Shown: in pieces, positions 2,846-4,508 of the stretch | Layout: each line of letters opens with the position of its first letter | How positions within the stretch are numbered: position 1 is the stretch's first letter | IMG/VR virus record: IMGVR_UViG_2671180986_000011 | From: a virus | Taxonomy: Duplodnaviria > Heunggongvirae > Uroviricota > Caudoviricetes | Length of the DNA stretch: 4,508 nt | Direction: 5' to 3' (one strand) | Position numbers and translations under genes: made by a program | Notes under the pieces: model-generated | Told to the model about the DNA's origin: nothing | The model's database searches: none | What the model saw: only the letters and a program-made list of their open reading frames with translations

Positions 2846-3056
2846 GAATCACCTTCCAAGGTCGTTTTGCCTTACGATATTCGTCATAAACTTTGGGGTC
2901 GTACTGAAGTTCCCCGCCAGATGCCTCTTGCAGGCGCATCGCGCGACCTTCAGGAACCAGTTCCCCCCATGCAGCAATGCTTGCCAGCCTAACTCCTGCG
3001 GCATTGGCAAGCTTTGTTTTGCTGCCAAAAANNNNNNNNNNNNNNNNNNNNNNNNN
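2829..3056 (-). CDS. dicC: Cro-like DNA-binding regulator, DicC-like; C-terminal 66 aa visible, N-terminus (about 9 aa) hidden in the N run; start coordinate estimated
   Basis: Manual minus-strand translation of 3029..2832: FGSKTKLANAAGVRLASIAAWGELVPEGRAMRLQEASGGELQYDPKVYDEYRKAKRPWKVIHENQA, stop TGA at 2829-2831. It closely matches the E. coli Qin DicC sequence as I recall it. The ORF track lists a different frame (2849..3490), which is spurious here. Confidence 0.75.
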   Translation of the reverse strand, partial: XXXXXXXXXFGSKTKLANAAGVRLASIAAWGELVPEGRAMRLQEASGGELQYDPKVYDEYRKAKRPWKVIHENQA

Positions 3057-3310
3057 NNNNNNNNNNNNNNNNNNNNNNNNNNNNNNNNNNNNNNNNNNNN
3101 NNNNNNNNNNNNNNNNNNNNNNNNNNNNNNNNNNNNNNNNNNNNNNNNNNNNNNNNNNNNNNNNNNNNNNNNNNNNNNNNNNNNNNNNNNNNNNNNNNNN
3201 NNNNNNNNNNNNNNNNNNNNNNNNNNNNNNNNNNNNNNNNNNNNNNNNNNNNNNNNNNNNNNNNNNNNNNNNNNNNNNNNNNNNNNNNNNNNNNNNNNNN
3301 NNNNNNNNNN
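3032..3310. other. Run of 279 N covering the dicC start, the divergent dicC/dicA promoter-operator region and the N-terminal HTH of DicA
   Basis: Literal n characters. Confidence 0.99.
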
Positions 3311-3962: not shown

Positions 3963-4166
3963 ATGAACGAGACAGAATTAAAACACGTTATCGCTCTACT
4001 CCTAGAAGATGCAAAACGCCTCCAGCAACTGGAGCCAAATGCAGGCACTGGGGCACGCATCTGGCTGGCTAAAGAAGCGCTGGAATCTGGCGATTATGAT
4101 AGCGAAGAAGCCTTCTACAAAGCAGAAGGCCGTGCAGGATATTCACCGGGTCTTGGCGGGGTATAA
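3963..4166 (+). CDS. Small prophage protein in the YdfB position, 67 aa, with a Gly-rich C-terminal tail
   Basis: ATG at 3963, one nt after the ydfA-like TAA, with AGGTGA SD: MNETELKHVIALLLEDAKRLQQLEPNAGTGARIWLAKEALESGDYDSEEAFYKAEGRAGYSPGLGGV. The 3' end overlaps the convergent minus-strand gene by 24 nt. Confidence 0.55.
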   Translation: MNETELKHVIALLLEDAKRLQQLEPNAGTGARIWLAKEALESGDYDSEEAFYKAEGRAGYSPGLGGV

Positions 4167-4439
4167 ATACCATGCGCATTGACTGAATTCGCAAACAAAA
4201 ACAGACGCGCGATACCTGGATAGTCGGTCTGCATAGTCAGATATCTGGCTGCGAATTTGATAAATATCACCGCCCTTTTCGGAAACATAAGTTCCGTCCG
4301 GGAGTTGATTATACGAACCATCTCCATGGGGGATCGTTCTCCTGAATCCTAGTGAGAGCATATATTTATGAAGCCCTTCGTAATCCTCTGGCTCAGCATT
4401 ATATAGTTCTACTCTGGCGAGATACGTTGGCATATTCAT
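4143..4439 (-). CDS. Hypothetical protein of unknown function, 96-98 aa, convergent to the dicA operon
   Basis: Complete ORF. Starts ATG-AAT-ATG (4439 or 4433), with AAGGA 1 nt before the first ATG and 7 nt before the second. Translation MNMPTYLARVELYNAEPEDYEGLHKYMLSLGFRRTIPHGDGSYNQLPDGTYVSEKGGDIYQIRSQISDYADRLSRYRASVFVCEFSQCAWYLYPAKTR. No hydrophobic TM segment or signal peptide. I do not recognise the family. Confidence 0.65.
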   Translation of the reverse strand: MNMPTYLARVELYNAEPEDYEGLHKYMLSLGFRRTIPHGDGSYNQLPDGTYVSEKGGDIYQIRSQISDYADRLSRYRASVFVCEFSQCAWYLYPAKTR

Positions 4440-4508
4440 TTCCTTACTGGTTGTGTGAGAACTTCAGTAAAGATACCACTGAGGTAGCCTGAGTTTAACG
4501 GACACTCC
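4436..4508 (-). CDS. Possible 3' end of an upstream minus-strand gene entering from the right edge, overlapping the next gene's start (ATGA)
   Basis: The minus frame is open from the window edge to the TGA at 4438-4436 (..ECPLNSGYLSGIFTEVLTQPVRK*). This TGA overlaps the ATG at 4439-4437 as ATGA, a common coupling arrangement. Only 23 codons are visible, so this is weak on its own. Confidence 0.35.
   Translation of the reverse strand, partial: ECPLNSGYLSGIFTEVLTQPVRK

Follow-up and report, generated by a model that had tools for sequence, protein, structure and literature searches.

The right-hand end of the 4508-nucleotide (nt) stretch of a caudoviral genome analyzed here (IMG/VR record IMGVR_UViG_2671180986_000011; the whole stretch, at its full length, is hereafter the window) carries a minus-strand gene for a protein of 96 amino acids (aa) that belongs to the YmfI/DUF2622 family. 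Comparison with related prophages shows that this is a single accessory gene, not a two-gene module, inserted antisense in the early-left operon of a Rac/e14-like lambdoid prophage, where it fills the exact slot of sieB in Rac and of ymfI in e14. Taken as a whole, the evidence moderately favors a single, self-contained moron whose product has a GhoS/Cas2-type fold and would target RNA in the lysogen. The original prediction, made from the letters of the window, had placed a functionally uncharacterized, convergent accessory gene in a lambdoid early region, and both parts of this claim are borne out, the place being the early-left region and the slot one known for exclusion genes, such as sieB in Rac. 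The suggestion that this is the likeliest site of an undescribed system fares less well: the gene is an ordinary moron of a catalogued family, and there is no multi-gene system around it.

The predicted minus-strand open reading frame (ORF) of 98 codons (4143-4439) is indeed present and converges on the plus-strand ORF 3963-4166, with an overlap of 24 nt. It is a real gene under purifying selection, not a chance ORF. The ratio of nonsynonymous to synonymous substitution rates (dN/dS) among homologues with 54-88% identity lies between 0.03 and 0.33, with synonymous sites saturated between clades, and an exhaustive HMMER search retrieves 938 cluster representatives at E≤1e-3, almost all of them 92-100 aa long. 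The 98-aa form is identical to STY2069 of Salmonella Typhi CT18, the 96-aa form is present on 317 contigs (many of them from Shigella sonnei), and the intact gene is found, with 99-100% identity, in 19 of 5426 complete Escherichia coli genomes (H46-H64; e.g. NZ_CP038394.1 2245263-2245622). The Salmonella orthologues are annotated as DUF2622 proteins, and the gene is also annotated in several phages. The PHROG and family profiles align from residue 3 of the 98-aa form, that is, from the second methionine; given also the better spacing of the Shine-Dalgarno-like AAGGA to this codon (Table 1), the product is most likely 96 aa long.

Several copies of the gene are disrupted. In Shigella flexneri SFBU1023 and E. 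coli ECMA0423 (L007 and L008, 4674-6004), an insert of 1331 bp breaks this gene after codon ~11, and window bases 4392-4396 are duplicated on its two sides (5 bp); by its size and by the duplication, the insert is a candidate IS2. Three further copies (L035-L037) are truncated.

The protein, which the original prediction could not place in any family, matches the NCBIfam profile NF051477 (YmfI_phage) over positions 3-88 of 89 (E=4.2e-14); with 52.8 bits, it stays far short of the 140 bits set for equivalogs, so that it is a homologue rather than an equivalog. Comparison of the family profile (A3) with e14 YmfI by hhalign extends the homology over the full domain (97.1% probability, E=4.9e-11, 92 columns). 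The match in PHROGs is phrog_8894, to which no function is assigned there, and the source databases (NCBI/UniRef) name the close homologues and the exact protein ‘DUF2622 domain-containing’. The link to GhoS comes through the Pfam family PF11080 (GhoS), presumably the former DUF2622, which is matched by 40 of 125 relatives at E≤0.01 and whose gathering cutoff of 21 bits is passed by five of the 10 relatives tested (P0020, P0026, P0032, P0041 and P0047; 21.7-27.2 bits). By this measure, the putative PF11080 membership of the window protein is transitive only, through its relatives; when the 98-aa protein itself is scanned against Pfam and PADLOC, nothing usable results.

The predicted structure points in the same direction. 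The AlphaFold model, built on a 125-sequence alignment (mean predicted local distance difference test score, pLDDT, 92.2), has the beta-alpha-beta-beta-alpha-beta order of a GhoS-type ferredoxin-like fold, and the top Protein Data Bank (PDB) match of this model in Foldseek is GhoS itself (2LLZ; E=1.1e-3, template modeling score, TM, 0.62), with only ~14% sequence identity. The best structural neighbors are all RNases, namely GhoS, Cas2 SSO8090 and VapD. Sequence searches of PDB chains with profiles of six and 125 sequences give no significant match and do not reach GhoS, and the viral fold library BFVD contains no match at E≤1e-3 and nothing characterized. Nine residues are invariant or nearly so in the family (R7, E9, Y18, L21, H22, M25, L44, P45 and Y49), including a conserved polar set (R7, 100%; E9, 91%; Y18, 100%; H22, 96%; Y49, 98%). 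In a weak profile alignment with GhoS, D15 of GhoS falls on the family-conserved E9 and R28 on H22.

In S. Typhi CT18, the gene has kilR-ydaE-recE-recT-lar-xis-int on one side and the ymfJ-like, DUF1391 and repressor genes on the other, all of which are encoded on the opposite strand. Homology between the CT18 prophage and Rac of E. coli K-12 breaks off 33 nt ahead of the ATG and resumes at the DUF1391 gene, and the interval held by sieB in Rac is filled in CT18 by the gene together with a ymfJ-like remnant. In e14, ymfI is convergent with ymfJ beside the repressor gene; the repressor gene of the window is two genes away from the 96-aa gene, so that the prophage context of the NF051477 type, a ymfJ-type convergence next to a repressor, is found here as well. 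Among 27 IMG/VR contigs, the order is always ydaE-kilR or rha, the gene, the ymfJ N-terminal part, DUF1391 and the repressor. In Citrobacter prophages, a lone homologue is located between Q and the holin gene, antisense to its neighbors, the homologues in phages of Pseudomonas, Ralstonia and Burkholderia are likewise alone and antisense to the flanking genes, and one homologue is located on an island of Caulobacter that also contains TIR and Abi genes. The gene pair envisaged in the original prediction is not conserved: no recurrent same-strand partner is seen in the enteric prophages (three types), in the 27 IMG/VR contigs or in the Pseudomonas, Ralstonia and Burkholderia phages. Downstream of the gene in the window, the same strand contains only antisense ORFs inside the ydfA/ydfB-like genes, and no cas1 or other cas gene, CRISPR array or vapX is present in the neighborhoods examined.

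A second gene does occur in the slot of one prophage, from an enterobacterial metagenome-assembled genome. Directly upstream of the YmfI-like gene there, a second lone antisense gene (L013 4239-4532) encodes a protein of 97 aa with a CxxC motif, unrelated in sequence to the YmfI-like protein, and converges on a small ORF on the opposite strand; this is a case of two morons in tandem in one slot.

A segment extending from 28 nt before to 25 nt after the ORF is shared with Salmonella lambda-like prophages. The gene has been swapped in by recombination between the conserved leader and a ymfJ-like gene, as a cassette of ~350 bp in which the ORF is preceded by 28 nt of leader and followed by 25 nt of 3' flank; the swap has left ymfJ truncated and overlapping the 3' end of the 96-aa gene. 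The convergent ‘ydfB-like’ ORF is a chimera. The e14 YmfJ N-terminus is nearly identical to the product of ORF 3963-4166 over ~40 aa, the DNA homology to e14 ymfJ is limited to the 5' part, phrog_12693 matches residues 1-44 only, and the rest is a tail read antisense through the 3' flank of the cassette and the last seven codons of the 96-aa gene. In the relative L001, the orthologue of this ORF is classed by the Prokaryotic Genome Annotation Pipeline (PGAP) as a C-terminally truncated pseudogene. The overlap is no sign of a designed convergent module but the trace of a cassette replacement that truncated a ymfJ-like gene. The stop codon of the chimera is the antisense of the conserved ...YLY codons, which explains the recurrence of overlaps of 21-24 nt in other prophages. 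A conserved module with the convergent partner was considered and rejected: the partners belong to different families (the YmfJ N-terminus, phrog_9419, phrog_26625 or none), and have in common only the C-terminal tail imposed by the overlap, the similarity between the L011 and L014 partners being weak (E=4e-5).

The leader is shared with CT18, with Salmonella L011 and with the region upstream of e14 ymfI, and the motif TTCACC...TGgTAT(G/C)(C/T)T is common to the gene and e14. On these grounds, the leader may be inferred to act as a promoter. The ~60-nt leader (L002 7940-8000, L004 5434-5488, L011 ~4940-5000) is at least 77% conserved between e14 ymfI and the distant allele, in contrast to the protein identity of only ~26% between e14 YmfI and the distant allele. 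An inverted repeat in the leader (CACCAC...GGTGGT) spans the putative -35/-10 spacer and is cut by the insertion sequence (IS) IS600 in the window; this region could be an operator or a recombination joint. At the other end of the cassette, the minus-strand fold of 4080-4150 has a free energy of -22 kcal/mol (z=-3.3); the hairpin within it (Table 1) is not called by a terminator scan and is not conserved in L011. The ymfI gene has been listed among SOS genes (PMC9742991). During the SOS response of e14, the change of ymfI is late and modest and ymfJ is strongly induced (PMC11002266), a contrast that fits separate transcription of the two genes. Control through a LexA box was examined and rejected, as no convincing CTG-N10-CAG is present upstream of the gene in e14, CT18, L001 or L011.

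A specific mechanism can be proposed only tentatively, with a probability below even. In intact prophages, the gene would be transcribed alone in the lysogen, from the conserved extended -10 promoter and against the pL-type transcription. Like GhoS, the protein would use the open face of its beta-sheet to bind or cleave specific RNA, with the family-invariant R7, E9, Y18, H22 and Y49 as the proposed RNA-site residues, and the outcome would be a benefit to the lysogen, for example, the exclusion of superinfecting phages or the control of a transcript of the host or of a phage. In the window, the insertion of IS600 has probably weakened or silenced the expression of the gene.

Several observations weigh against an RNA-targeting moron expressed in the lysogen: a strict sigma-70 consensus scan does not call the putative promoter; the window protein itself has no match to PF11080 at E≤1 and falls short of the gathering cutoff; a direct profile comparison with E. 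coli GhoS gives only a weak match, at a probability of 35.6%; the position of the GhoS catalytic arginine is a histidine in the window protein; the family is mildly acidic (median isoelectric point, pI, 6.1), which lends no positive support to RNA binding, with GhoS itself at pI 4.4; none of the 19 complete E. coli carriers has a PGAP feature over the gene; and a literature search finds no paper on DUF2622 or STY2069, nor on the function of E. coli YmfI, the one ‘GhoS-like’ mention being in an unrelated paper. The replaced arginine, R28, is reported as the key residue for the RNase activity of GhoS (PMC4010927).

The main rival explanation, less probable but with an appreciable chance of being correct, is that the protein is a non-catalytic protein binder. 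Its small ferredoxin-like domain would then serve as a scaffold by which some protein of the host or of a phage is inhibited or redirected, as by an anti-defense factor or by a mimic of Cas2 that poisons Cas1-Cas2. Protein inhibitors are frequent among the small lone morons of phages, and the mild acidity of the family and the histidine at the R28 position also count in favor of this reading. The conservation pattern argues otherwise: the five polar residues are kept at 30-40% identity, from Enterobacteria to Acidobacteria, and a polar set kept across such distant proteins fits a catalytic or ligand site better than a lineage-specific protein interface. That the closest structural neighbors are RNases also speaks against a binder without enzymatic activity.

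An improbable variant takes the relationship with GhoS literally, so that the gene would be an orphan type V antitoxin cleaving the mRNA of a GhoT/OrtT-type membrane toxin of the host and thereby disarming the toxin during lysogeny or induction. GhoS does act through the cleavage of ghoT mRNA (PMC4010927), the fold and the distant family link point to GhoS, and on the E. coli chromosome ghoT adjoins ghoS. Nevertheless, neither GhoT (PF10753) nor any other small hydrophobic ORF adjoins a homologue in the neighborhoods examined, and the identity to GhoS is only ~14%. The orphan antitoxin is made less likely, too, by the fact that the family ranges through Pseudomonas, Ralstonia, Burkholderia, Caulobacter and Acidobacteria, far beyond the taxa reached by a word-indexed search with E. 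coli GhoS, which gives only Escherichia- and Shigella-named proteins.

A generalization of the preferred reading, an RNA-targeting moron, would present the YmfI/DUF2622 proteins as widespread single-gene, lysogen-expressed RNases of the GhoS/Cas2 fold that occupy antisense ‘exclusion’ slots from Enterobacteria to Burkholderia and act in superinfection exclusion or defense, or as anti-toxin or anti-defense factors, with the chromosomal GhoS of E. coli as a domesticated, divergent offshoot. In this extended form, the scenario is rather unlikely.

The two-gene (or larger) operon of the original prediction, with a first gene running off the window and translationally coupled to the 98-aa gene through ATGA, is refuted, and its probability is now very low. 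The appearance of coupling is created by a frame that is open over 23 codons in the window and whose end overlaps the first ATG as ATGA. A frame of this length is about the chance expectation, given that (61/64)^23 is ~0.33, and the likely true start of the gene, the second ATG, is not overlapped by it. Similarity to all IS-free relatives ends at 4479, and the distal 29 nt of the window are the terminal repeat of IS600: 4480-4508 match exactly two PGAP-annotated copies in L001, 11418-11446(+) and 10523-10551(-), each 64 nt before the start of a coding sequence (CDS) annotated as ‘IS3-like element IS600 family transposase’ (orfA), so that both the terminal sequence and the distance to orfA identify the element. 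The IS600 end lies 40 nt upstream of the first ATG (4439). The same junction occurs in two IMG/VR contigs, L023 and L025, both otherwise not identical to the window; it is absent from the complete E. coli genomes, and a scan of genome contigs gives only IS-disrupted relatives. In L025, the full IS600 segment with orfA lies beyond this junction, and the ATGA frame, 30 aa in total, closes seven codons past the window edge, still within the IS600 end and antisense to the transposase gene. Because it does so without a partner gene, the operon falls by the test that the original prediction itself had named; the only nearby gene is the divergent orfA, which points away from the 96-aa gene. In S. Typhi CT18, where the IS is absent, the corresponding frame gives another, unrelated peptide of 30 aa, with no gene called in the upstream 394 bp, and no gene is called across ~400-490 bp upstream of the 96-aa gene in the IS-free relatives. 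IS600 has replaced the native upstream region and, in so doing, produced an illusory upstream frame. An outward promoter was sought in IS600, and only the inward promoter-like site of the IS itself is found.

Two further observations concern this arm of the prophage. In L025 (1-4954), three IS600 fragments are interspersed among duplicated segments of rha on the upstream side of the gene, which indicates repeated IS600-mediated rearrangement. In CT18, the ~360-bp spacer between kilR and the gene (L002 7607-7968) is 89% identical to the kilR-sieB spacer of Rac (L005 7230-7605), in which the annotation places the small RNA KilS (L005 7406-7503); the window has IS600 instead of this spacer.

Finally, that the ORF is spurious, being non-coding or merely antisense to a real ydfB/ymfJ-like gene, as the missing PGAP annotation might suggest, can hardly be maintained in view of the low dN/dS, the 938 length-matched homologous representatives, the confidently predicted fold and the annotation in Salmonella and phages.

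Table 1. Features of the window, with the gene and its surroundings listed first
Feature	Position	Strand	Remarks
YmfI/DUF2622-family CDS	4143..4433	-	96 aa; alternative annotated start 4439 (98 aa)
Shine-Dalgarno-like AAGGA	4441..4445	-	7 nt from ATG 4433, 1 nt from ATG 4439; read from sequence
Native leader remnant	4446..4479	-	Extended -10-like TGgTATCTT at 4478-4470; -35 half and upstream replaced by IS600
IS600 (IS3-family) left terminus, 29 nt	4480..4508	+	Transposase reads rightward, away from the 96-aa gene
GC-rich hairpin, 10 bp	4109..4131	-	12 nt after the stop codon; possible cassette terminator, weak U-tract
Convergent ‘ydfB-like’ ORF	3963..4166	+	YmfJ-like N-terminal ~44 aa plus 23-aa tail
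Other minus-strand genes		-	DUF977, ydaV/DnaC-like ATPase, ydaU-like replication gene, ydaT-like, cro-like
Plus-strand genes		+	Helix-turn-helix repressor (end 3603), DUF1391 (ydfA/ydaF-like), ‘ydfB-like’ ORF 3963-4166

The window as a whole covers the genes for immunity and replication in a Rac/e14-like lambdoid prophage. Qin, the comparator in the original prediction, is a poorer fit than Rac and e14, given the ydaS/T/U/V-like replication genes; the absence of a Qin-type continuation is confirmed, with no dicF/dicB-type sequence after the ydfB-like ORF, and the intact continuation in the relatives is kilR-ydaE-recE-recT or rha-ydaE. The minus-strand ydaT-like gene has a 1-base deletion at 2807/2808 compared with its intact counterpart in E. 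coli FDAARGOS_943 (YdaT family, 140 aa); the deletion splits it into ORFs 2669-2845 (58 aa) and 2424-2729 (101 aa); together with the IS600 insertion, this frameshift suggests prophage decay. Positions 1844-2078 are a perfect hexanucleotide tandem repeat, (TCTTCC) in 39.2 copies with 100% matches, which abuts an N-masked block and, on the minus strand, encodes a run of at least 78 glutamates within the ydaU-like replication gene; the relatives have 0-6 copies (‘EEEE’ in L001, three units in CT18, six in L023), and the repeat is either a strongly expanded variable-number tandem repeat or an assembly or masking artifact. Runs of N at 2079-2200, 2259-2291 and 3032-3310 (434 bases in total) mask parts of the replication gene, the repressor gene, the divergent cro-like gene and the intervening operator region, so that the immunity region is only partly readable.

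The window copy is of little weight in itself: the gene, here intact, is already catalogued as hypothetical (STY2069, DUF2622), and the prophage around it is decaying and riddled with IS elements. The family is mildly notable for its link to GhoS, for the consistent antisense placement without partners and for the missing PGAP annotation in all 19 E. coli carriers. Its sole characterized relative is a type V antitoxin, yet the members examined are partner-less accessory genes, antisense to their surroundings, of temperate phages or a mobile island, located in the sieB slot in Rac-like prophages. A point of more general use is that an IS terminus at the edge of a window or contig can mimic a translationally coupled upstream gene.

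Among the known systems, the closest is e14 YmfI (K-12 b1143, NF051477), which is homologous, similarly convergent and overlapping with a ymfJ-type gene next to a repressor gene, preceded by a related leader and likewise uncharacterized in function; it differs in that the identity is ~26%, YmfI is 113 aa long with a C-terminal extension, and ymfJ, unlike in e14, is truncated to the first ~44 codons in the window. GhoS (YjdK), an endoribonuclease that serves as the antitoxin in GhoST (type V), agrees with the window protein in size and in the order of secondary structure elements, predicted in the case of the window protein, and an acidic residue ending beta-1 and a basic residue on alpha-1 align with D15 and R28; the low identity and the histidine in place of R28 set it apart. 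The gene for GhoS heads the chromosomal ghoST operon, whereas the window gene is prophage-borne, antisense to its neighbors and lacks the adjacent, co-transcribed ghoT by which a GhoST system is recognized. With the ferredoxin-fold nucleases Cas2 and VapD, the likeness is in the fold only: no solved chain shows detectable similarity in sequence, and the linkage to cas1 or a CRISPR array expected of Cas2 is not found in the neighborhoods examined. SieB (of Rac and of lambda/P22) is 162 aa long and unrelated in sequence (BLASTP against Rac SieB, E=0.70), so that the resemblance is positional only; in Rac-like prophages, both genes occupy the slot between kilR and DUF1391, antisense and with overlapping 3' ends. 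Compared with lambdoid morons, the gene is atypical in that its G+C content is not clearly distinct from that of the neighbors and its promoter and terminator miss the consensus scans; otherwise, it conforms to the type: it is small and stands alone, is preceded by a leader of its own and followed by a possible hairpin terminator, runs counter to the operon around it and, depending on the phage, is located in the early-left region or between Q and holin.
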